Below are positions 6,528-44,858 of a DNA stretch of 64,000 nucleotides, piece after piece. How positions within the stretch are numbered: position 1 is the stretch's first letter; each line of letters opens with the position of its first letter. This DNA comes from Candidatus Nomurabacteria bacterium. Its GTDB lineage: Bacteria; Patescibacteriota; Minisyncoccia; Phycocordibacterales; UBA918. The translations under genes and the position numbers were made by a program. Under the pieces are notes generated by a model. It made no database searches. It was not told where the DNA came from and saw nothing but the letters and a program-made list of their open reading frames with translations. The stretch spans positions 92,011 to 156,010 of the forward strand of contig JACKGE010000001.1 of NCBI GenBank assembly GCA_020632155.1, given 5' to 3'.

Positions 6528-7886
6528 TTAAAATTCTATCTCTACCTCCTCATTAAGTGAGGGTGCCACCGCATTCACTCCCAAGTAATCACGCAGGCGT
6601 TGCACCAAAAAGAGTGACGAGTGCTCCTCTCCCATGGTGACAAATATTTGTTTGGCCCTATCGCCACCTTTAGCAACAAAGTCCGTCAGCTGCTCTCGGT
6701 CTGCATGTCCAGAGTAGCCACGAATACGGGCAATTTCAGCGCGAACGCGTACGTCAGCATTATCAATGCGCACCTTCTTAGCACCGTCTTGGAGGAGTCG
6801 TCCAAGACTTCCAACTGACTGATATCCGACCAAGAGCAAAGTTGTGTTCTTATCCTCAAGATACCGTTTCTCGTGCATTAAGATACGACCGCCATGGCTC
6901 ATGCCGCTACCGGCAATAATAATTTTGGCGCCTTTCACTTTGGCAATGTCCTGTGAGTCTTTGACTGTGCGGGTGAACTCGAGCTTTGGAAACTCAAAAA
7001 TATCATCGCCAGCTTTAATTTGCTCCTGTATGTGTGTACTCAGATACTCCGAGTAGGTACGATAGAGCTCTGTGACGGCAATGGCCAACGGTGAATCAAG
7101 GAAGGTTGGAATTGGTGCAATAGCACCAGACTCAACGAGGTCATTGATCTCAAGGAGCATGCCCTGAGTACGCTCAAGTGAAAAAGCCGGAATAATGAGC
7201 GTGCCACCGCGACGTTGCGCCGCTTCAATATGATGCTTCAGGAGCATAGTGCGTTCCTTCACCTCTTCGTGCGAGCGATCGCCGTAGACGCTTTCCATCA
7301 CCATGTAGTCATAGCCCTGCGGCACATCAGGTGCGTCCAAGAGCGGTTGCGGCACATTACCAATGTCACCGGTAAAGACGAGCTGTTTGCCACCGCGGCT
7401 AAGGGTAATAGAGGCGGAGCCAAGAATATGGCCGACATTTTTGAACACAGCGGTAACACCGTCAGGTAGTTCCAGATTCTGGTGATAGGACACAGTCTTC
7501 CAGAGTGCTAACGCGGCGTCGATATCCCCTTCTTCGTATAAGCGGTCGATGCCAAAGCGCTCCTCCTCGTAGAGCATGACCTTATATGCGTCTTTTAGCA
7601 TCACGGCAGCGAGCGCCTTGGTTGGTTCGGTTGAGTAGATAGCACCGCGAAAGCCATCGCGTACTAGCTTGGGAATTCTCCCAATATGATCTGCGTGAGC
7701 ATGAGTCACAAGAAGAATATCTGCGTCAGCTGGATTGTACGGGAACGGATCAGCATTTGCAGCCATGGCAAATCGATCCCCCTGAATAAGACCGCAGTCT
7801 ACTAAGATAGCGGTCTCTCCAGTATCAAGCATGAAGTTCGCTCCCGTCACACTGCCAACACCGCCGTAGAATCCAAGAGTACTCAT
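6528..7886 (-). CDS. beta-CASP family MBL-fold ribonuclease (RNase J/CPSF-like)
   Basis: 452 aa; HAHADH metallo-beta-lactamase motif and beta-CASP region. Confidence 0.75.
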   Translation of the reverse strand: MSTLGFYGGVGSVTGANFMLDTGETAILVDCGLIQGDRFAMAANADPFPYNPADADILLVTHAHADHIGRIPKLVRDGFRGAIYSTEPTKALAAVMLKDAYKVMLYEEERFGIDRLYEEGDIDAALALWKTVSYHQNLELPDGVTAVFKNVGHILGSASITLSRGGKQLVFTGDIGNVPQPLLDAPDVPQGYDYMVMESVYGDRSHEEVKERTMLLKHHIEAAQRRGGTLIIPAFSLERTQGMLLEINDLVESGAIAPIPTFLDSPLAIAVTELYRTYSEYLSTHIQEQIKAGDDIFEFPKLEFTRTVKDSQDIAKVKGAKIIIAGSGMSHGGRILMHEKRYLEDKNTTLLLVGYQSVGSLGRLLQDGAKKVRIDNADVRVRAEIARIRGYSGHADREQLTDFVAKGGDRAKQIFVTMGEEHSSLFLVQRLRDYLGVNAVAPSLNEEVEIEF

Positions 7887-8299
7887 AGAGAAAATGTATT
7901 AATGCGCGTAGCAACCGCGTGACCGACAAAGCCGCCGAGTAAACCGACCGTCAGATCTCCAAGCGTATCAAACAGGTAGTTGTTAGCAAATGCGATGGCG
8001 AGTGAAAATTCAAACACCTCCCACAAAAGCGCGACTATAAAAACAAAGATGATGGCGGCTTTCAGTGACAACAACACACGTGGCACCGGCAACCGTAGTT
8101 CGCGCAGGGCAAAGGGAGACAGCGCTACCACAGCGCCGCCAATAAAGTGCATTGGGATATCAAGCCACGGGAATCGCCAATACAAGTAGAGTTCCAAAGA
8201 CACGTAATGTAGCGCCGCAAATACGGATATGGTGATGAGAAAAATGGTCAAATTCAGCCTCGACATGAACCCCATAAGTGTATCATAGGCACCTATCAA
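7883..8299 (-). CDS. hypothetical integral membrane protein
   Basis: 138 aa, about 4 TM segments; 4-nt overlap (ATGA) with downstream MBL gene. Confidence 0.5.
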   Translation of the reverse strand: MIGAYDTLMGFMSRLNLTIFLITISVFAALHYVSLELYLYWRFPWLDIPMHFIGGAVVALSPFALRELRLPVPRVLLSLKAAIIFVFIVALLWEVFEFSLAIAFANNYLFDTLGDLTVGLLGGFVGHAVATRINTFSL

Positions 8300-8315: not shown

Positions 8316-8340
8316 AAAACCGCTTTCTAAAGCGGGTCTT
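8316..8340 (-). terminator. minus-strand hairpin+T-run (AAGACCCGCTTT-AG-AAAGCGGTTTTTTCAT) 15 nt upstream of membrane-protein gene; attenuator or sRNA terminator
   Basis: stem CCGCTTT/AAAGCGG followed by U6 on minus strand. Confidence 0.5.
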
Positions 8341-8581
8341 TCATGGGAACCACAGACGCATGCTCCTGCCTTAAACAGGTGGGCACCCTTTCCGATTCGT
8401 ATCTGAAATCTTAGCAAGCCAAGTTCTCATCACTCCTCGCGATTGCAGGCAGCCCTGAGCAAAAAATTAACCGGAACATACGTGATGTGGTTCCTTGAGT
8501 ATTATAGCAAACAGTATAGTGAGGAACACAAAATCACCTGTATGACTAAATGAAGGAGTGGGCCAAATGCGCGGCGGACAA

Positions 8582-8629
8582 GAGAAAAGCCGCGAGTCGT
8601 ACCTAGATGTACGGTGAGCGGCTTTTCTC
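8582..8629. terminator. 12-bp stem hairpin downstream of ndk (GAGAAAAGCCGC...GCGGCTTTTCTC) carrying GAGTCGTA-N-TACGGTGAG motif in its loop
   Basis: perfect 12-bp inverted repeat; part of repeated motif family. Confidence 0.55.
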
Positions 8630-8663
8630 GTAGTCCAACAAAGCAGTTGGTGTGCTATTTCAT

Positions 8664-9269
8664 TTAGTCCTTGGTACCATCGAAATTGACGTCATACATA
8701 ATCCGCTCCTGCGCAGTCACGTATTTAAGAACCTCAGCTGGGGTGAACCAAAGTGGTATCTCACGCTGCGCTTCGTCAACAGACTCAGACTGATGAACGA
8801 GGTTACGTACGCCGCGGTTCTCAAGGGTCGCGTGCGCGTACGAGTCAACGGTGTAGTCACCACGGATAGTACCGACGTCAGACGTAGATGGCTCAGTGGT
8901 GCCAACAATCTTAGAAACAACCGCCACAGCCTGATTACCTTCCATGACCATCGCCACCAGTGGTGCGGCCATCATGTACTTTACGAGGTTGCGTACAATA
9001 TCCTTGCCGTACTCAATTGCCTCTTTCTCAACCGGAATAGTATGTGCCTCCATGTCTTTGACGATACCCTCACCTTTGCGCTGGTACCACTCATCATCCT
9101 TGTTGTAGTGAGCAAGTAACTGCTCCTCGGTTGCATAGACCATTTTCATGGCCACAATTTTAAGGCCAGTCTGCTCAAAACGCTTTATAAGCTCCCCAAC
9201 GAGTGAGCGCTGGACTGTATCTGGCTTGAGGAGAACAAGGGATTGTTCTTGGTGTGGTAATCGCGACAT
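8664..9269 (-). CDS. ndk: nucleoside diphosphate kinase (long 201-aa form)
   Basis: LVLLKPDTVQRSLVGELIKRFE...; NDK fold with insertion/C-terminal extension. Confidence 0.85.
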   Translation of the reverse strand: MSRLPHQEQSLVLLKPDTVQRSLVGELIKRFEQTGLKIVAMKMVYATEEQLLAHYNKDDEWYQRKGEGIVKDMEAHTIPVEKEAIEYGKDIVRNLVKYMMAAPLVAMVMEGNQAVAVVSKIVGTTEPSTSDVGTIRGDYTVDSYAHATLENRGVRNLVHQSESVDEAQREIPLWFTPAEVLKYVTAQERIMYDVNFDGTKD

Positions 9270-11477: not shown

Positions 11478-11535
11478 CTAGAGTACCAGCTTTTACCCCA
11501 CATGCAACAAAATATCGTTGTGTTATGCTACTCTC

Positions 11536-12156
11536 ATGCATCGGCCACACATCATTACCCTCTCTGGAAAGCCCGGCAGTGGCAAATCATCCACGTCAGA
11601 CAAGTTGGCTGAACTTCTTGGCTATACACGGTATTCTTCGGGTGATTTGGTACGCAAAGTGGCAAAGCAACATCACCTGACGCTGGAGGAGTTCAACGAA
11701 CGCGCCAAGACCGACCACACACTGGATGATAAAGTGGACGAGGAGCTGCGTAAACTGCGTGATGAGAAAGACGTCGTCATCGATTCACGCCTCGGCTTCT
11801 ACTGGATACCGGAGTCGTTCAAGGTGTATCTTGAACTCGATATTGACCTCGCTTCCGCTCGTATATTTCGCGATAGTGCAATTACTCAGAGCCGCATCGA
11901 CAGTGGCGAGACCGGCAGTATGCAGGAAGTGGTACGCGAGGTAAAAGAACGTTACGAGAATGAACGCGAACGTTTCAGGGCACTATACGGTGTCGATCCA
12001 TATAATCCGCAGCGCTTTGATCTCATTATTGATACCTCACGGCAAAATCCGCAAAGTGTAGCGCTCACCATATTTGATAACTATAAGCAGTGGCTAAAGC
12101 GTGACGAGTGGGAGCAGGTCCGTGTTGATGTGCCGGTCGGGTACTCCTTACAGTAA
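11536..12156 (+). CDS. cmk: (d)CMP kinase-like P-loop nucleoside monophosphate kinase
   Basis: MHRPHIITLSGKPGSGKSST...; archaeal/short-type cytidylate kinase-like; internal start of ORF 11518. Confidence 0.6.
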   Translation: MHRPHIITLSGKPGSGKSSTSDKLAELLGYTRYSSGDLVRKVAKQHHLTLEEFNERAKTDHTLDDKVDEELRKLRDEKDVVIDSRLGFYWIPESFKVYLELDIDLASARIFRDSAITQSRIDSGETGSMQEVVREVKERYENERERFRALYGVDPYNPQRFDLIIDTSRQNPQSVALTIFDNYKQWLKRDEWEQVRVDVPVGYSLQ

Positions 12157-12213
12157 CAATTTTTACAAATTTTGCTGACCCCAAAGCACAGAAACTATTT
12201 TGGATACGCGGCG

Positions 12214-12266
12214 GACAAGAAAAAAGACCCAAGTGGGACAGAGTAGTCCAAGGGTCTTTTTTCTTA
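12214..12266. terminator. bidirectional terminator between convergent cmk and secY
   Basis: AAAAAAGACCC-loop-GGGTCTTTTTTCTT; preceded by CGCGGCGGACAAGA motif shared with 8571-8583. Confidence 0.65.
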
Positions 12267-12414
12267 GCCTAACGAAATAGACTAGTTTCTGGGTGAGGAT
12301 TTTTCTTAGAGAGCGACGTCACGCACCGAAGTGAAACGTTGAGTCGTAGATAGACCTACGGTGAGACGTTGAACAAGGGAGTGTCTAGCTCTCTAGGAAA
12401 AAGACCGGCCAGAA

Positions 12415-13686
12415 TTAGTACTCGCGCATCGAAACCTGCGCATCAAGTCGTCGAATCAAATCCAAGATCACATTAACGACGATAAGAAGGGCGGTACCAC
12501 CAATGGCAAGCGCGGTAATACCAGTTGCCTGCTGCATACCAAACGGCAAGACAGCAATGAGCGCAAGGAAGGTAGCGCCAATAAGGGTGAGCCGCGTAAT
12601 GACATTACCTAGGTAGAGTGCCGTCTGCCCACCCGGACGAATACCCGGGATAAAGGCACCGTTACGCTGCAAGTTCTTAGCGATAGAATCTGGATCGAAG
12701 GTCACCGCGGTATAGAAGAAGGTGAAGAGGAATACGAGCACGAAGTAGACCGAGCCGTATGCCACCACATTATTTGAGAACTGCTGCACCGCAGCCAGTG
12801 CTCCATCGATACCGTTTATGTTGAAGCTGGCAAGAATGTTGAGAATCATTTGCGGAAACAACAAAATTGAGAGCGCAAAGATAATCGGGATCACACCAGC
12901 TTGGTTAAGACGAAGTGGCAGGTAACTCTGGGTTCCACCATACGTTTTACCACCACGACTCTGCTTTGCGTACGTTATTGGAACAGCACGCTCAGCCTCA
13001 GTCACGATGACAACCGCATAGATGACAGCCAGTGCCACGAGCGCGAACCCAACATAGAGTGGCAGCTGCGCGGCATTAAAGCCGAAGGCCAACTGACTTA
13101 CTGTTGCGGGGAGACCCGCTACGATACCAGCAAAGATAATGATGGATACACCATTACCGATACCGTACTCCGTTACGAGTTCACCAATCCACATCAGCAA
13201 CATAGAGCCGCCAACGATCAAGATGACGTTTGTCAGGAAGGCAAACGTTGAAAGACCAACGAGTACACCCTGACTTTGCAAGAGTGAGAGAAATCCGAAA
13301 GCTTGTAGTACAGCCAGTGGCAACGTTAGCATACGCGAATACTGCGTAAACTTAGCGCGACCAGCTTCCCCTTCCTCAGTGTAAAGGCTCTTCATTTTTG
13401 GCGACATCACGGTCATAAGCTGCATAATGATGGACGCCGTAATGAACGGACCTACTCCGAGCATCACAATCGAGAGGTTGGCAAGGCCACCTCCTGAGAA
13501 GATGTTGAGAAGACCGAGGAACTGGTTGTTCTGGAAGAACTGCTGCAGCACCGCGTGGTCAACACCCGGAATTGGGATTGCTGCCAAGGCGCGGAAGACG
13601 AAGAGTGCTCCGATGACAAACAGAACGCGATTGCGAATGGCTGGTTCGGTGAAGATGACTTTGAGTTTGTGAATGAATGTCTTCAT
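12415..13686 (-). CDS. secY: preprotein translocase subunit SecY
   Basis: 423 aa, 10 TM, canonical SecY N-terminus. Confidence 0.92.
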   Translation of the reverse strand: MKTFIHKLKVIFTEPAIRNRVLFVIGALFVFRALAAIPIPGVDHAVLQQFFQNNQFLGLLNIFSGGGLANLSIVMLGVGPFITASIIMQLMTVMSPKMKSLYTEEGEAGRAKFTQYSRMLTLPLAVLQAFGFLSLLQSQGVLVGLSTFAFLTNVILIVGGSMLLMWIGELVTEYGIGNGVSIIIFAGIVAGLPATVSQLAFGFNAAQLPLYVGFALVALAVIYAVVIVTEAERAVPITYAKQSRGGKTYGGTQSYLPLRLNQAGVIPIIFALSILLFPQMILNILASFNINGIDGALAAVQQFSNNVVAYGSVYFVLVFLFTFFYTAVTFDPDSIAKNLQRNGAFIPGIRPGGQTALYLGNVITRLTLIGATFLALIAVLPFGMQQATGITALAIGGTALLIVVNVILDLIRRLDAQVSMREY

Positions 13687-16392: not shown

Positions 16393-16628
16393 TAGGTTTA
16401 ATGGTTAGCACTTCGTACATAACACACAAAACGAACTGTCGTTCGCTACGGTGAGATATTGCTATGACGTTGTGCAGTGGAGCAGTATCACCTAGATGTA
16501 GTGACTGACTCCGCTGATAATCCGGCTCGCAGCCTCTGGCTGCTCGCCTTCACAAAAGTGGCTCCCATCTACTCCCAAGCCGCTTTTATGGTGCGCCTAC
16601 TATACGTGAAAATAAGGAAATAGCAAGA

Positions 16629-17108
16629 CTATTCCTGATTTAGTTCTGATCGGAGCTCCATCCATATTTGGCCAAGCCAATTTTGACCTTGCCAGTCTGC
16701 ACCTCGCCCCCAACAACTGTCTTTAGGTGAATCTTCAATCAATTTGGCATTTTCAGTTTGCCGCAGTGTCTTCTCAATGTATGGATGCTGTGAGATCTTT
16801 GCGCGACAAATATCTTTCATGACGACTCTCTTTTCGTCTTCCCAAGATGGACGTAATTTATTCTGATACTTTATAGCCAATTTAAGTGCGTCATGGGCTG
16901 AAGTAGCAGACGCTATCTCTTCAACAATACTTACATCATCGAAACCGGCGGCTTGAAATGCGTGCTCAGATGTCTGCCACAAACGTTCTTGCCACATTAC
17001 TGAAAAAGCAGCAAAGTTGGAAAAACAGTATCCGAACTCTCCTCCGTAGAACAAAACGGGGTCTGTAATCTTCTCTGAGTATGTATTTTCAGAATTGTTT
17101 ACGAACAT
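16629..17108 (-). CDS. NADAR (YbiA-like, DUF1768) domain protein
   Basis: FYGGEFGYCFSNFAAFSVMWQERLWQTSEHAFQAAGF matches the NADAR/YbiA signature. Confidence 0.7.
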   Translation of the reverse strand: MFVNNSENTYSEKITDPVLFYGGEFGYCFSNFAAFSVMWQERLWQTSEHAFQAAGFDDVSIVEEIASATSAHDALKLAIKYQNKLRPSWEDEKRVVMKDICRAKISQHPYIEKTLRQTENAKLIEDSPKDSCWGRGADWQGQNWLGQIWMELRSELNQE

Positions 17109-17133
17109 ACACTATTTTTAGCACATTATTAAA

Positions 17134-17165
17134 AACCGGCCGAGGATCACTCCCCAGCCGGTTCT
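17134..17165 (-). terminator. hairpin terminator overlapping the 3' end of ORF 17147..17824
   Basis: minus strand AACCGGCTGGGGAGTGATCCTCGGCCGGTTTTTAATAAT. Confidence 0.5.
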
Positions 17166-17824
17166 GATATGACTGCCTTCCACAGCCGCTCAAGCTCGCG
17201 CCCGATTCGCAGCCGCCACGATATTTGAAGCCGTAAGAGGTACCGATATACTCCATGAAGCCGACCATACACCCATGAGTAGACATACTTGGGCACACGC
17301 TGGAGTACCGGCGGTACTAGTTTCTGGAGACCCAAAAACGCAACCGATCGGAACAAGAAATGCTGCGTGGACCGTAGCCCATACAACACATATGGTCGCA
17401 CCAAAGGCCAGAAACCAATGATAACGATCACAAAATGACCGAAGTAATGGTGCACGACCACAAACAGTGACACGCTGAAGGTGAGCGACAGAAGTATTCT
17501 AAATGGTGTTGAAACCAGAATATTCAGCCGTGTCTTCAATAGCAGCCAGAATGCGCGGCCGTACTGGCCCACCTGCTTGGATAGGGCGTCTACTCGTTTC
17601 CGTACCCAGCGCGGCGCCAACGGGCGCAAGAACCACAACATTAGGTACTGCGGCGCTGATATCAGCACAAAGCGACGAGTCAGTACCAATATCCACGCTA
17701 CAACCGAGTCGTACGTTACCTCCCTCAAGACCCATTCAATTTGGCGAACCAGTGTGTCCCGAGGCATAGCCTCGGGCGCAAAATATGCCCCCAGCCCAAA
17801 GAGGAGGAACAGCAATTTTCGCAT
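17147..17824 (-). CDS. hypothetical polytopic membrane protein (W/R/L-rich)
   Basis: 225-aa ORF inserted between rplE and rpsN; multiple overlapping alternative-frame ORFs make coding status uncertain. Confidence 0.4.
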   Translation of the reverse strand: MRKLLFLLFGLGAYFAPEAMPRDTLVRQIEWVLREVTYDSVVAWILVLTRRFVLISAPQYLMLWFLRPLAPRWVRKRVDALSKQVGQYGRAFWLLLKTRLNILVSTPFRILLSLTFSVSLFVVVHHYFGHFVIVIIGFWPLVRPYVLYGLRSTQHFLFRSVAFLGLQKLVPPVLQRVPKYVYSWVYGRLHGVYRYLLRLQISWRLRIGRELERLWKAVISEPAGE

Positions 17825-20974: not shown

Positions 20975-21059
20975 AATTTAGGTTATAGGTTATAGGTTAT
21001 AGGGAAATCGTATTCGACAATTTCTGACACCTGAAACCTGACACCTGTTAACTTAGGCT
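20975..21059. repeat. palindromic heptamer-repeat element copy C1 in rplV-rpsC intercistronic space
   Basis: plus strand TAGGTTA TAGGTTA TAGGTTA TAGGG - hairpin GAAATCG..ATTTC - TGACACC TGAAACC TGACACC TG. Confidence 0.65.
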
Positions 21060-21377: not shown

Positions 21378-21467
21378 GATTTTAGGTTATAGGTTGTAGG
21401 TTATAGGTTGTAGAGAAATCGTCTTTGAAGATTTCTGAAACCTGAAACCTGTCACCTGCAAACTTCG
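21378..21467. repeat. palindromic heptamer-repeat element copy C2 in rpsS-rplV intercistronic space
   Basis: TAGGTTA TAGGTTG TAGGTTA TAGGTTG TAG - hairpin AGAAATCGTCTTTGAAGATTTCT - GAAACCT GAAACCT GTCACCTG. Confidence 0.65.
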
Positions 21468-25895: not shown

Positions 25896-25935
25896 AACCA
25901 AAACCCCGCGGCTGAAGCCGCGGGGTTTTGGTTTT
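25896..25935. terminator. bidirectional GC-rich terminator (AAACCCCGCGGC-TGAA-GCCGCGGGGTTTTGGTTTT) downstream of rpsJ
   Basis: 9-bp GC stem with A/T runs both sides; separates rpsJ from rplC. Confidence 0.65.
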
Positions 25936-26076
25936 GGCAACTAAGTTGAACTATTCTGAGGAAAAATGGATGAGATGCAAGGCACCGGAGGAAAATAATG
26001 TGAGTGCGGCTACTAGCCGAGCGAACATTATTTTACCGATCGGTAACAAAGCAGGTCGCCATTTTTACCAGAATAA

Positions 26077-26433
26077 CTACATCATCTTGACGTCAATAGA
26101 CACCCCAGATGGCAGAGAGAGGTTGGTCAGTGCTTCCACGACCTTTCCGCTCGGGTTCATGATGTCGATGACACGCTTATGCATGCGCATCTCAAACTGT
26201 TCTCGCGCATCCTTATGAACGAAGGTCGAGCGATTTACCGTGTACTTTTTGATCTCAGTTGGAAGCGGAATCGGACCAACAACCTTGGCGTCAAAACGCA
26301 AGGCGGTGTCGATGATCTGCTTTACACTGGTATCGAGGATCTTGTGTTCATAAGCACGAACACGAATACGGAGTTTTTGAATCTCTCCAGCAGGCGCCTT
26401 GGCGCTGCTTTTTGTTGTTTTAGTAGTTGCCAT
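26077..26433 (-). CDS. rpsJ: 30S ribosomal protein S10 (N-terminal extension)
   Basis: ...IRVRAYEHKILDTSVKQIIDTALRFDAKVVGPIPLPT... Confidence 0.9.
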   Translation of the reverse strand: MATTKTTKSSAKAPAGEIQKLRIRVRAYEHKILDTSVKQIIDTALRFDAKVVGPIPLPTEIKKYTVNRSTFVHKDAREQFEMRMHKRVIDIMNPSGKVVEALTNLSLPSGVSIDVKMM

Positions 26434-35897: not shown

Positions 35898-35984
35898 AGG
35901 CACAAACAAAATTACATGTATTACTTACTAGTGTTGACGAGTTGGCCTCGCCCTCCTTACCTTTACAATTTATTGTATTGCTAC

Positions 35985-36045
35985 TCTAGTGTAAACGACT
36001 TTTTTCCAAAACTACGGCCGTTTATCTGTAGCTCGAGAATATGCT
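35985..36045 (-). pseudogene. orphan duplicate of the 3' end of the AlkC-like gene (encodes ...HILELQINGRSFGKKSFTLE*)
   Basis: about 85% identical to 36512..36580 (…HVLELQINGRSFGKKIFLLK*). Confidence 0.5.
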
Positions 36046-36134
36046 TCCTATAGTACCTAGCGCTTTTAATAACTTTACTTATAGCCTCAGTAGTGTTGTC
36101 ATGACTCTTAAAACGCTAGGAGGCAGAGTAATAG

Positions 36135-36422: not shown

Positions 36423-36511
36423 GGTTGCTCTCCCTTTCCTGCTACGAGCGTAGCATAAACGTGATTTGATTGAAATACTAGTTTTTATCTAACCTAAAAA
36501 CCATCACATTT

Positions 36512-37654
36512 TTACTTTAGTAAAAAAATTTTTTTTCCAAAACTGCGACCGTTTATCTGTAGTTCAAGAACATGTTTTCCAGGGTATAGCGTGCGAGTAC
36601 TCATAAGCCTGAGAGTATGATTCTTCTCAAGGTGCACGGATTCATTTGGTCTCAGTACCAACTTGCTGAGTTTATAGGTTTTTGGCGCCAGTTTGCCGCT
36701 AGCCTTATTAAAATGAATGATGTAATCGGCCATGACATTTTGTTCTTTGTGACTGGTCGAAGTGAGTGTAAACGAAAATGGAACTGACTCACCCACCCGA
36801 ATGCTCTTACTCCCAAGCGTAAAAGCAGATACCCTGAGATGACCAGTATCAAACCCAATCAGTCGAAGCGCGTCGCTGTCTCCTGCGCGCACCAAGCTAC
36901 GCAGTGCATGGTTGGTGAGGTACGAGAGCTCCCGCGCACTTTGTCGTTTTTCTTTATTCCATTTGCGTAGGAGCCTAAGGGCCAGTGACTTATCTACCTT
37001 AGTGACATCATTAAGATGATTAGCAACTGAGCGCACCACGTACCGCGTTCGGTCAGCATGTAATCTGTCCAGTATCGGTGCTAGTTTTTTTGGTGGCACG
37101 GTAATTTTCTTTGCCCACGGTAGATTCGGGCGCGTACCTTCACTTGCAAGCCTGCGGACATGATAGTTTGTATCTTTTGACCATTTCTCTACCGCCTCCA
37201 GTGTCTCTTTAGGAAAAGCGTTTAAAAAATCGCGAAGCGCTCCCTCAGCTGAGAAGCGTTTGGTAAGTTCACGCAATGCTGCCAGCGAACGCGCAACATG
37301 TTTTTCGGTACACCCGTAGGTGGCAACAAAGTACGAATACGGGGCGTAAATAAAGTCACCAAAGTCATTATCAGTTTTGCCTTCATCAAGTACTGGTGGC
37401 TGCGCAGCAAGAATAATGGGGAGTGCATCAGAATATGCACTTGGTAAAAACTCTCGCAACCGGTCGCGAATACCCCGAACCCGTTCCATGAGTTCTTGCT
37501 CGGGAAAATCCTTGAGAACTGCCTTTATAAAGGCTTTGGTAGCAAACTCGGGATAGACCGCTTCAATTTCTTTAGCCAACTGTTCTACCTTGCGCCGATT
37601 AAAGAGTTCGTCCTTAAGTGAAAATTGCTTTTCAGTCTGACGGTGTTTTTTCAT
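36512..37654 (-). CDS. DNA alkylation repair protein, AlkC/AlkD-like HEAT-like-repeat glycosylase with C-terminal Ig-like domain
   Basis: 380 aa; HVRRLASEGTRPNLPWAKK helical-repeat region; beta-rich C-terminal about 100 aa. Confidence 0.55.
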   Translation of the reverse strand: MKKHRQTEKQFSLKDELFNRRKVEQLAKEIEAVYPEFATKAFIKAVLKDFPEQELMERVRGIRDRLREFLPSAYSDALPIILAAQPPVLDEGKTDNDFGDFIYAPYSYFVATYGCTEKHVARSLAALRELTKRFSAEGALRDFLNAFPKETLEAVEKWSKDTNYHVRRLASEGTRPNLPWAKKITVPPKKLAPILDRLHADRTRYVVRSVANHLNDVTKVDKSLALRLLRKWNKEKRQSARELSYLTNHALRSLVRAGDSDALRLIGFDTGHLRVSAFTLGSKSIRVGESVPFSFTLTSTSHKEQNVMADYIIHFNKASGKLAPKTYKLSKLVLRPNESVHLEKNHTLRLMSTRTLYPGKHVLELQINGRSFGKKIFLLK

Positions 37655-41395: not shown

Positions 41396-42133
41396 TCACT
41401 CCCGCGCTTTTTTATTCAACCGGCGCACCTGTTTTCGCCAAGCCCGGATGGACCATCTCTGGTCAGCATCGTACCCAGAGCTGTACAGCTTTTGCATGGT
41501 CTTCGTTTTTGGATCGATGCGCGTGCCGCGTATTTCGTACCCTAAAACCTCAAGCGGCTCTTCCAAGGTATTGACCCGTTTGGTCTTGCTGTCGTTAAGC
41601 ACGAAACCATATCGTCCAACAACCCTTCTTACGCTCGGACCTACACGCTTACCAATACGCTTGTCCGAAGAAAGCAGTACGTCATCCACATATCGCGTGC
41701 AGTGCAGACCCGCTGCTTCACAGTACTGTCCGAGCTCAAAGTCTAAGCCGCCAAAGCGGCAATAGATCTCAAACAGATACGGTGACGCAGGCGCACCTTG
41801 GATCAAGCCACCTTCACCCTGTTCGTGGAAGAAGTGGTCACGCGGCTCCAGCAACCTGAGGTCAATCCCAAGGCCATCTACAACTGCATGGAGTCGTTCG
41901 TACGTAACATAGTCGAACGCACTTTTGAGGTCAGTCTTGAAATAGTAGTGGTGTCCTCGCCGTGTGTGTCCGATAATGTCCAGGCCTGGGTCGTGATATT
42001 CGATAGGGCCGGCGTCTTTCAGGAACAGCGTGTGTACATCTCGAACGGCAGTGTTTGGACTGTACGCAACTCTACCGCCATCTAACGTTAATCTTTTAAA
42101 CCCCGGAGGGGTCAGATGCCTAATTTTGGCCAT
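41396..42133 (-). CDS. compact reverse transcriptase (RVT_1 only, 245 aa)
   Basis: RT motifs FKTDLKSAFDYV, QGAPASPYLFEIY, RYVDDVLL (YxDD), LNDSKTK, LGYEI; SD GGGAG-7-ATG. Confidence 0.8.
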   Translation of the reverse strand: MAKIRHLTPPGFKRLTLDGGRVAYSPNTAVRDVHTLFLKDAGPIEYHDPGLDIIGHTRRGHHYYFKTDLKSAFDYVTYERLHAVVDGLGIDLRLLEPRDHFFHEQGEGGLIQGAPASPYLFEIYCRFGGLDFELGQYCEAAGLHCTRYVDDVLLSSDKRIGKRVGPSVRRVVGRYGFVLNDSKTKRVNTLEEPLEVLGYEIRGTRIDPKTKTMQKLYSSGYDADQRWSIRAWRKQVRRLNKKARE

Positions 42134-43452: not shown

Positions 43453-43518
43453 GTTTCATAGTATAACAAACTTGCTATTTCAGATAATCTGAATGACAAC
43501 TACTAGAACAGTGATCAT

Positions 43519-43560
43519 ACAAAACAAAACTGCTCCCAATTGGGAGCAGTTTTGTTTTTT
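43519..43560. terminator. bidirectional terminator AAAACAAAACTGCTCCC-AATT-GGGAGCAGTTTTGTTTT downstream of rpsG
   Basis: perfect 17-bp stem. Confidence 0.7.
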
Positions 43561-43680
43561 GAGAAATTTCAGAATTGGATGCTGCGCGAGGCGCTAGCGA
43601 AAAATTATTCGAGTGGGGCAAGTGCCCAGTGAGAATAATTTTTCGCGCGGCAACAAAGCGCCGCGCCGATTCTGGGATTT

Positions 43681-44154
43681 CTACCAGGCGAAGTGGGCAA
43701 AGGCCCTGTTAGCCTCAGCCATCTTATGCGTATCCTCCTTCTTCTTCACGGCATCACCTTCGTTCTTAGCAGCAAGCATAAGCTCGTTTGCTAGTGCTTT
43801 ATGCATTGGGATGCCCTTTTGCTTGCGGGCAGCAGCAATGATCCAGCGCAGGGCCAAAGCAGTGCGGCGCTCTGGACGCACCTCACGCGGCACCTGATAG
43901 TTGGCGCCACCGACGCGACGGCTACGCACCTCCATCATTGGACCGGCGTTTTGGAGCGCCGTGTTGAATATCTCAACCGGCTCACCCCCGCCCTCCTTGG
44001 CGTTCTTAATGATATCGAAAGCAGCATACACGATCTTGCGTGCTGTCTCCTTTTGACCACGAAGCATGATGTAGTTGATAAGGCGCTCAACAGCAACCTC
44101 ACCGAACTTGATGTCAGGCGTGACTATGGGTCGTTTTTTTATTGGTCGTCTCAT
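43681..44154 (-). CDS. rpsG: 30S ribosomal protein S7
   Basis: MRRPIKKRPIVTPDIKFGEVAVERLINYIMLRGQK... Confidence 0.93.
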   Translation of the reverse strand: MRRPIKKRPIVTPDIKFGEVAVERLINYIMLRGQKETARKIVYAAFDIIKNAKEGGGEPVEIFNTALQNAGPMMEVRSRRVGGANYQVPREVRPERRTALALRWIIAAARKQKGIPMHKALANELMLAAKNEGDAVKKKEDTHKMAEANRAFAHFAW

Positions 44155-44399
44155 GACTTTAGTTATTAGTTATGAGCGAAAAAATGAGAAGTATGACACA
44201 TCATATTTTCATTCTTCGCATAATGGTCACTCTTTCGAGTACCAATCGGTATCTGTAGCGAATATAAACTATTAAGTTACTCGTTTTAAATCAGGTGGAA
44301 ATTGTTTTGTAGCGCGGCGCACAAGGAATGTGGCGCGAGCTTTATTTGGCAATAAAGTGAGTGTCACATTACCGCCGTGCAACAAAGCTACAGAACGAT

Positions 44400-44813
44400 T
44401 TACTCTGATTTAGGGCGCTTAGCGCCGTAGCGACTACGTCCCCGACGTCGCGCATCTACACCCGCTGAGTCGTACTTACCTCGTACGACGGTGTAGTTGA
44501 CACCGATGTCTTTAACACGACCGCCACGTACCAATACCACAGAGTGCTCCTGCAAGTTGTGTCCCTCACCAGGGATGTAGGCAGTGATCTCCTGACCGTT
44601 AGTAAGACGAACACGGGCGATCTTTCGAATCGCAGAGTTCGGCTTACGCGGCGTCTTGGTGGTCACACGCGTACAGACCCCACGCTTGAATGGTGAGTTG
44701 TAGCTGTTTGGACGGTTCTTGATCTTGTCAAAACCCGACTGCAGAGCAGCTGTTTTGGTCTTGGTCGCAGTGTCGCGACGCTTACGCTTGGTTAATTGAT
44801 TGATTGTTGCCAT
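44400..44813 (-). CDS. rpsL: 30S ribosomal protein S12
   Basis: [13 protein letters not shown]...[48 protein letters not shown]; internal Met of ORF starting 44858. Confidence 0.95.
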
Positions 44814-44858
44814 AAATAGCCCGCCTACTCTACTACATACAGCCATTTTTGCAACCAA

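Follow-up and report, generated by a model that had tools for sequence, protein, structure and literature searches.

A covarying ~130-nt rod-like element at gene ends in a Kaiserbacteria-like bacterium and its relatives

Several types of palindromic repeat have been described in bacteria. The ERIC/IRU elements of enterobacteria and the Correia/NEMIS elements of Neisseria are palindromic intergenic repeats of around 100-160 bp. REP/REPIN sequences are palindromes of 20-40 nt, or doublets of these, carry a GTAG or CGTC foot tag, are near-identical within a genome and are associated with a RAYT (Y1 HUH) transposase, whose gene REPs flank. The genomes of bacteria of the candidate phyla radiation (CPR, Patescibacteria) are among the most compact known. 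Here we describe a palindromic element of ~130 nt that recurs at gene ends in such a genome, and compare it with these repeats and with intrinsic terminators.

Copies of the element in the window

The window, that is, the whole stretch of 64,000 nt that was analysed, stems from a Kaiserbacteria-like CPR bacterium; its ndk protein was recovered unchanged on the Kaiserbacteria-group MAG GCA_020428955.1 and on nine metagenome contigs. An earlier note on this DNA had pointed to a short motif and a 25-nt hairpin unit that recur at two loci, downstream of ndk and of secY. The motif, CGCGGCGGACAAGA, is present in exact form at 8570-8583 (its true start is 8570, not 8571) and at 12207-12220, and together with the 6 bases that follow, 19 of 20 positions match between the two loci. 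The unit GAGTCGTA-N8-TACGGTGAG is likewise exact at 8594-8618 and 12341-12365, and was present in none of 100 shuffles. The compensatory change reported for its stem, GTAC/GTAC versus GTAG/CTAC, is a genuine C-G to G-C swap, and all pairs of the apical stem (helix 7) covary family-wide. The sequence GTAGTCCAA is also common to both loci, at 8630 and 12243. We found that CGCGGCGGACAAGA, GAGTCGTAS-N6-STACGGTGAG and GTAGTCCAA are the 5' junction, the apical hairpin and the 3' junction of one element of ~130 nt.

The element is a rod-like imperfect palindrome, of which the outer stem (P1) differs in sequence between copies and reaches the stop codon of a gene, starting at or over it. P1 is followed by a 5' junction with the consensus ..RAUAC-GA-G-GC-GGAC-AAG and by an inner hairpin (P2), which in the CPR copies is A-rich in its 5' arm and U-rich in its 3' arm, and which bears a GAG/UGA internal loop and a 6-bp apex of the CCGUAC/GUACGG or the GGGAC/GUCC type. 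After the 3' junction, GUAG-UCC-AAC-GAA-GUAG, the second arm of P1 closes the rod. As hairpins, P2 measures ~50 nt and the whole rod ~100 nt. The conserved loops (AGAU/AGAU, GA/GAA, GC/AA, AAG/GUA and GAG/UGA) are purine-rich, and on the other strand they read as pyrimidine mismatches. Five full copies, one divergent copy and one relic were found in the window, all on the + strand, and each of the six copies abuts the stop codon of a gene on the - strand (ndk, secY, rpsJ, rpsG or rpsL, by Pfam):

8544..8669, +: copy 1, full rod; P1 overlaps the ndk stop codon at 8664-8666
8570-8582, 8582-8629 and 8630-8646, +: parts of copy 1, i.e. the 5' junction CGCGGCGGACAAG, P2 and the 3' junction GUAGUCCAACAAAGCAG
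8594-8617, +: apex of copy 1, GAG-UCGUAC-CUAGAU-GUACGG-UGA
12189..12292, +: copy 2, full rod with the second CGCGGCGGACAAGA; by folding and by model (bounds 12180-12308; 69 bits, E 6e-14)
12297..12404, +: divergent member, long hairpin with the apex GAGTCGTAG-ATAGAC-CTACGGTGAG at 12341-12365
16446..16500, +: relic fragments CTACGGTGAGA...GACGTTG and ACCTAGATGTA, in the NADAR-rpsN spacer
25951..26082, +: copy 3, full rod, by folding and by model (66 bits); abuts the stop of rpsJ (26077..26433, -; Pfam S10)
43560..43689, +: copy 4, full rod, by folding and by model (77 bits); overlaps the stop of rpsG (43681..44154, -; Pfam S7)
44286..44418, +: copy 5, full rod, by folding and by model (89 bits); overlaps the 3' end of rpsL (44400..44858, -; Pfam S12)

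The observation of the earlier note is confirmed, but three full copies (25951-26082, 43560-43689 and 44286-44418) had escaped it, and its range 12207-12365, taken as a single locus, covers according to the folding two separate elements (12189-12292 and 12297-12404). The placement downstream of ndk and secY was right as to position and incomplete as to strand, every copy being opposite to these genes (ndk 8664..9269 and secY 12415..13686, both on the - strand by Pfam).

Copy 1 scored 113 bits with the covariance model described below (E 1.7e-25; model bounds 8543-8672) and folds at -66 to -68 kcal/mol on the + strand and at -55 to -59 on the - strand, with a z-score of -9. Copy 2 has an apex of the GGGAC/GUCC type with a degenerate 3' UGA, and lies 24-30 nt past the stop of a cmk-like gene on the + strand (11518..12156; Pfam). 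The divergent member, which was not found by the model, terminates at a distance of 11 nt from the stop codon of secY (12415-12417), has an outer stem (CTTAGAGAG/CTCTCTAGG) that resembles the one of the secY-adjacent copies in two relatives (L050 and L011), and folds at -44 to -47 kcal/mol on + versus -31 to -34 on -. Beyond copy 3 a simple two-way terminator (25901-25932) precedes rplC (Pfam L3), and beyond copy 4 there is a simple terminator at ~43515-43555; copy 5 is located between rpsL and rpsG. The related pieces reported for the rpsN upstream spacer were confirmed at 16446-16455 and 16490-16500. This relic (16446..16500) gave no covariance-model match and shares exact 11-mers with copy 1 and with the divergent copy; since the piece at 16446 extends into CTACGGTGAGA...GACGTTG, in the manner of the divergent copy (12300-12402), it is by its sequence a decayed fragment. 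A search with Rfam 15 gave no match at gathering score in the window and none over the elements at E values up to 10, and neither a tRNA nor a tmRNA was found in the window.

Some other features of the window were recorded. Between copy 1 and the gene for a DUF2238 protein (7883..8299), on the - strand at 8320-8497, a TGCTATAAT-type promoter is followed by a structured and conserved RNA of ~150 nt with the helices P1 (GGAACCACA/UGUGGUUCC), P2 (CGUAUGUUCC/GGAGCAUGCG), an inner helix (GGGCUGCC/GGGUGCCC), a CCUGG/CCAGG hairpin and a terminator at 8320-8335. It occurs downstream of ndk in 46 of the 80 loci of relatives, RNAalifold on 25 of its sequences gave 43 pairs (19 compensatory), and Rfam gave no meaningful match; we regard it as a putative riboswitch or leader of the gene for the DUF2238 membrane protein. 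The nucleoside diphosphate kinase itself (8664..9269, -) has 201 aa, compared to the usual ~140-150 aa, and its match to the Pfam NDK family is split in two, suggesting an insertion within the protein; the long form is common to all 80 relatives found (L011-L090). The ribosomal-protein cluster is interrupted, immediately upstream of rpsN and past rplE (according to the annotation of L001), by two genes on the - strand (16629..17824), which encode a 225-aa protein without a Pfam family and a NADAR-domain protein and are followed by the 236-nt spacer with the relic. Two 76-nt repeats (20979-21054 and 21390-21465) are 86% identical; each has three AGGTTAT-like units and, farther along, three complementary ACCTGA-like ones, so that either repeat could fold into a long hairpin made up of heptamer units, and a 79-nt direct repeat (35977-36055 and 36508-36586; 76% identical) is spaced by 531 nt. 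Finally, a 245-aa reverse transcriptase (Pfam RVT_1) is encoded at 41396..42133 (-), with weak NCBIfam matches to retron St85 (1e-12), group II intron (1e-9) and Drt2 proteins. A link between this enzyme and the rods was rejected, as it adjoins no rod and as no template/variable-type repeats were found within 38.5-43.6 kb.

The family in relatives and metagenomes

To describe the family, species-representative genomes with ndk were scanned, which yielded 80 loci of Kaiserbacteria, Paceibacteria and other CPR MAGs, with an ndk identity of 61-81%. The near-identical contigs of the same species (L001-L010) were uninformative, as their intergenic DNA is 100% identical. RNAalifold on 18 copies aligned over 141 columns gave 34 pairs, 29 of them with compensatory changes. 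The covariance model (R1) recognised ~86 copies at E<1e-3 in 1.26 Mb from the 80 relatives, with the best E-values reaching 1e-27; five of these copies are the ones in the window, always on the + strand. The number of rods per 15-20-kb locus ran up to six in some and was zero in many. The covariation check that the earlier note had proposed was carried out on the aligned copies: over 93 model hits all 34 base pairs covary, varying on both sides, and 90.6% of the cells are paired, compared to 62.6% in shuffles and 35-51% with slid partners. In approximate searches the motifs of that note always co-occurred in the loci of relatives. Its concern that the copies might be the only ones and be absent from relatives is removed by the ~86 copies in relatives and by more than 100 related rods in metagenomes. 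The idea of a chance similarity among ordinary terminators could appeal to the fact that the local terminators are look-alike A-tract/hairpin/U-tract palindromes, but has a vanishing probability in view of the shuffles without the 25-nt unit, the E-values down to 1e-27, and the junctions and loops that are conserved in 125 or more copies. Chance similarity is excluded.

No description of such an element was found in the literature searched. An archaeal C/D or H/ACA small RNA was ruled out, ndk, adk, map and secY being bacterial by Pfam and the box motifs being absent. Two stand-alone hairpins resembling P2 (L081:5257-5330 and L017:780-832) read A-tract-GACCC-GACUGGGAC...GUCCAGGGA-GGGUC-U-tract and have neither P1 nor junctions; they adjoin full elements and could represent copies that are partial or have decayed.

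An exact search of metagenomes with the commonest apex, GAGCCGTAC-N4-6-GTACGGTGAG, recovered at least 120 stretches, and R1 recognised 42 full elements in the first 80 metagenome loci listed. Among the matches listed, 101 of the 114 with sufficient flank sit in rods of at least 90 nt, the median length being 131 nt. Several of these rods carry other junction sequences, and by this sequence evidence the rods form a superfamily. They reach contigs with a GC content of 59-70%, in which the core is conserved, P2 has no A/U tracts and the interior of P1 reads AAAA-GGGNCC...GGNCCC-UUUU. The genes on these high-GC contigs include those for a 1221-aa GAF-PAS hybrid kinase, an MFS transporter and an acetyl-CoA synthetase, and near-identical rods adjoin unrelated genes. 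In general, the genes near metagenome rods were ordinary housekeeping genes, with no recurring transposase-like gene among them, and Rfam found only tRNAs on the high-GC loci. No exact match to the commonest apex was obtained in viral contigs, on which ground carriage by phages was rejected. Sister rods in L094, L097, L104, L112, L115, L116 and L121, at 45-69% GC, have the same apex and different junctions (...CCGUAGCGAGC...GAGCCGUAC-N4-GUACGGUGAG...GCGCAGUAGG...); they were not found by R1.

Placement, folding strand and history of the copies

In 76 of the 86 copies the gene on the 3' side of the element is on the opposite strand, with its stop codon a few bases from the end of the model. In 68/84 copies the 3' end is where an opposite-strand ORF of 100 aa or more terminates, compared to 6/84 for the mirror arrangement, i.e. 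a same-strand ORF ending at the 5' end. Fully traced rods mostly have their base no more than ~6 nt away from the stop codon (-24 to +14 overall), and the abutting stop codons are TAA (50), TAG (12) and TGA (0), against a background of 60/29/11%. Of the convergent intergenic regions, 10% contain an element, compared to 3.3% of the co-directional and 1.2% of the divergent ones. The orientation tracks the local gene and not the direction of replication. Some copies lie within classical operons (rpsL/rpsG and rpsJ/rplC), and a plain two-way terminator is found on the far side of the rod in 27/84 copies.

The fold is better on the strand of the model (GAG...UGA), with 80/84 and 41/41 copies and mean differences of 12.5 and 13.8 kcal/mol; overall, 121 of 125 copies fold better antisense to the gene, by ~13 kcal/mol. 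The same strand was preferred in 112 of 114 metagenome rods (among the matches listed). The alignment contains 273 G.U versus 64 A.C pairs. Ordinary gene-end hairpins in the same loci, used as a control, showed no strand bias (206 vs 180), and the bias of the variable outer stem P1 is weak (80 vs 58). A mutational strand bias was rejected as the cause of the G.U excess, given that the ordinary hairpins are unbiased and that the GC skew of the window predicts a bias in the other direction, towards the coding, leading strand; base composition is accordingly not the cause of the strand bias.

The U-runs show another polarity. Beyond P2, 78/84 copies have the longer U-run on the gene-sense side and none has it on the other, and in the CPR copies it continues as CUUGU on the gene-sense side only. 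In the rare sense-oriented copies in the rpmI 5' UTR the U-runs are weak and interrupted, as judged from the sequences. As in an intrinsic terminator, a G+C-closed hairpin (P2) with a U-run stands after the gene, for instance GGGUCUUUUUUCUUGU in gene-sense, whereas the 50-100 nt with conserved loops and junctions depart from the norm of ~5-14 bp, a short loop and no conserved sequence. A simple terminator scan omits the P2 hairpins, the loop of which exceeds its limit. Upstream on the best-folding strand no promoter-like signal was detected: scores were no better than those of shuffles and lacked a positional signal, so that a dedicated promoter on that strand was rejected. The missing promoter signal, the two-way terminators on the far side (27/84) and the U-run in gene-sense speak against transcription of the folded strand on its own.

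The earlier idea of a gene-end module has held in that the element is recurrent, structured and covarying, with a terminator-like hairpin; it is not a small unit of 25-60 nt, however, but a rod of ~130 nt. The function that we would assign to it, with somewhat less than even confidence and by reasoning from sequence, is that of a composite gene-end transcription terminator/insulator. The U-run asymmetry and the plain terminator that follows ndk in genomes without the element suggest that P2 would, in CPR copies, be the intrinsic terminator of the abutted gene. The full rod would form only in RNA with both arms of P1, and its fold would be selected on the opposite strand. Considering that the conserved G.U pairs, like the tandem G.A loops, lie on that strand, the rod would most likely act on transcripts that approach the gene's 3' end from downstream or on read-through, and would halt or neutralise them ahead of the gene, with the A-tract, long hairpin and U-tract as a second layer. 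The GA-rich loops, conserved across phyla, would be the probable docking surface of a putative protein. Several findings count against such a boundary function. There is no promoter-like signal upstream on the best-folding strand, and given the plain two-way terminators on the far side, antisense transcripts would stop before they reach the rod in those 27/84 copies. The loops are conserved across phyla although terminators need no conserved loop sequence, P2 has no A/U tracts in the high-GC relatives, and the outer stem P1 has a weak strand bias (80 vs 58). The operon-internal copies (rpsL/rpsG and rpsJ/rplC) are in places where strong termination would be awkward.

The observation that the conserved fold is antisense to the preceding gene also bears on the sense-strand 3'-UTR recognition site that the earlier note had proposed, and which therefore does not fit as it was stated. 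A wider version, in which the mRNA of the gene carries the reverse-complement rod as a 3'-end stabiliser or RNase III site, and in which the lower stability of the sense fold would be acceptable, or even required, beside the stop codon, is in our view improbable, but has certain attractions. With a rod that begins at the stop codon and precedes a plain terminator in 27/84 copies, the gene transcript is the only RNA sure to include both arms, the rod keeps a stable fold on the sense strand (-45 to -60 kcal/mol), and the outer P1 has little strand bias. REP, ERIC and Correia repeats have been reported to work as sense-strand 3'-UTR elements. On the sense strand, however, pyrimidine-pyrimidine mismatches take the place of the conserved loops and A.C that of the conserved G.U pairs, and efficient termination at P2 would leave the sense RNA without its second P1 arm.

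The best-folding strand could instead give rise to independent small RNAs convergent with the neighbouring gene, for example as a multi-copy decoy or scaffold of a conserved protein. The fold, the tandem G.A loops and the G.U pattern are those that a functional RNA would have on this strand, several phyla share the conserved core, and the copies of the rpmI 5' UTR show that the strand is transcribed in at least one context. We nevertheless rate this still lower than a sense-strand role, as a promoter-like signal is absent, the 3' end enters coding sequence without a terminator of its own, plain terminators lie directly upstream in a third of the copies, and many genomes of the clade have no element among the loci examined.

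The history of the copies was traced at orthologous sites with and without the element, which differ by a clean indel of ~130 nt with the older terminator intact beyond the insert. Empty ndk sites consist of the stop codon, a AAGTTGTNCACA box and a plain terminator, and in filled sites the element lies between the stop and the box; the site is filled in L066 and L051 and empty in five loci. In the rpmI 5' UTR, five genomes have a sense-oriented copy that ends 1 nt before the ATG and four relatives have none, and there are additional filled/empty pairs, in one of which the insertion adjoins a TATAAT box. These comparisons revealed neither a consistent target-site duplication nor a shared terminal repeat. 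The identity of copies within a genome (0.537) is close to that between genomes (0.520), and in 58 of 60 cases the closest relative of a copy is an ortholog elsewhere and not a paralog. Given that paralogs are no more alike and that the nearest relative is the ortholog, the copies are old and vertically inherited in the clade, gained and lost as discrete units of ~130 nt. Recent proliferation or concerted evolution was accordingly rejected, save for one conversion tract: two copies in L042 share an identical tract of ~85 nt, the only sign of exchange, which points to conversion or duplication.

The miniature-repeat alternative of the earlier note came close to the mark, and it lives on as the main rival reading, namely that the rods are non-autonomous mobile or formerly mobile palindromic repeats of the REPIN, MITE or ERIC kind, now quiescent in the clade. 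An enzyme encoded elsewhere would then recognise fold and GA loops on a single DNA strand, any activity as a terminator would come second, and placement and orientation at gene ends would reflect target choice or tolerated insertions. We consider this a serious alternative, though less probable than a composite terminator/insulator. It would account for the clean presence/absence of ~130 nt with an older terminator kept beyond the insert, for the zero to six copies per 15-20 kb among related genomes, for the varied contexts (past stop codons, 1 nt ahead of the ATG of rpmI and beside a TATAAT box), for near-identical rods beside unrelated genes in high-GC contigs, for the ~85-nt tract in L042, for the spread over very different GC contents and for a strand-specific fold without a matching transcription signal. 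Since indels, patchiness, odd contexts and strand-specific fold are all covered, transcription would not be needed. The rods lack, however, constant terminal inverted repeats and a consistent target-site duplication, there is no recurring transposase-like gene near them but only housekeeping neighbours, and the exact apex search found none in viral contigs. Structure and loops were kept over long divergence, the orientation follows the local gene rather than replication, and the likeness of paralogs (0.537 vs 0.520) and the orthologs as nearest relatives indicate that there was no recent proliferation in the clade.

There is a real chance, though well short of even, that the rods represent a new class of structured nucleic acid of ~130 nt occurring in several phyla, either as a polar insulator RNA by which antisense transcription would be removed or as an ssDNA/cDNA hairpin with a putative enzyme. 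With much the same reserve, such a class could be defined by the domain-V-like apex GAG-CCGUAC-loop-GUACGG-UGA and the serial tandem G.A loops, and might work antisense to the preceding gene. Some of the compact CPR lineages carry a rod every 3-15 kb, even inside ribosomal-protein operons, amounting to an estimated 1-4% of their DNA, and are being maintained in some way. Should they serve as gene-end insulators, they would offer a first view of the borders of transcription units in these uncultured bacteria and a useful mark for annotating where genes end. Should the strand paradox turn out to have a mechanistic basis, for example an antisense RNA, an ssDNA substrate or a putative binding protein, they would constitute a new structured RNA/DNA class with more than 200 aligned examples and full covariation, beyond one phylum.

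Relation to known elements

Three known structures share details with the rod and were rejected. The apex GAGCCGUA...UACGGU recalls what we take to be the lower helix of domain V of group II introns (GAGCCGUAU...GUACGGUUC), including a G.U beside the AGC, but the 2-nt bulge, upper helix and GNRA loop of that 34-nt hairpin are absent, the closing bases are G.A/A.G where Watson-Crick pairs would be expected, there are no other intron domains (such as the domain VI that follows domain V) and Rfam gave no intron match at E values up to 10. The tandem G.A loops (GAG/UGA, GA/GAA and AGAU/AGAU) are symmetric or 2x3 and lack the 3-nt bulge of a kink-turn. Integron attC sites have RYYYAAC and GTTRRRY boxes paired at the hairpin base, extrahelical bases and cassette arrays; GUCCAAC is present in the rod, yet its AAC lies in an internal loop opposite GC, ~30 bp from the base, and the neighbours are ribosomal and housekeeping genes.

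The likeness to ERIC and Correia elements is more extensive. It comprises a size of ~130 bp, an imperfect palindrome folding into a long hairpin, a position near gene ends, presence/absence at orthologous sites, a copy number that varies among relatives, and reported effects on termination or mRNA fate. In contrast to these elements, the rods have an outer stem that varies by copy and show no terminal inverted repeat or TA duplication, they are nearly fixed antisense to the abutting gene and have tandem G.A loops, and their core spans CPR to 70% GC with no recent proliferation. The same holds for the comparison with MITEs, of which the discrete orthologous presence/absence was observed (rpmI 5' UTR and ndk sites), whereas instead of shared terminal inverted repeats with a duplication we found variable outer stems and an inconsistent duplication.

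Like REP/REPIN sequences, the rods are extragenic palindromes located at 3' gene ends; for both, a strand-specific fold would be explained if the hairpin were recognised on a single DNA strand, and REPs near stop codons are known to affect expression. They differ in being ~130 nt long and diverged, and in having no RAYT-like gene nearby. Considering that length, a within-genome identity (0.54) no higher than between genomes and the absence of a recurrent enzyme gene near them, membership of this group was rejected. With two-way intrinsic terminators they share the A-tract, the G+C-closed hairpin and the U-tract after genes as well as the enrichment in convergent regions. They are set apart from these by a P2 of 50 nt in a rod of ~100 nt, by the conserved loops and junctions, by a P1 that pairs with the stop-codon region and by the P2 of the high-GC relatives, which has no A/U tracts. 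The palindromic repeats (ERIC, Correia and REP) and the two-way terminators are the nearest to the rods in behaviour, and the tests that define each of them gave a negative answer.
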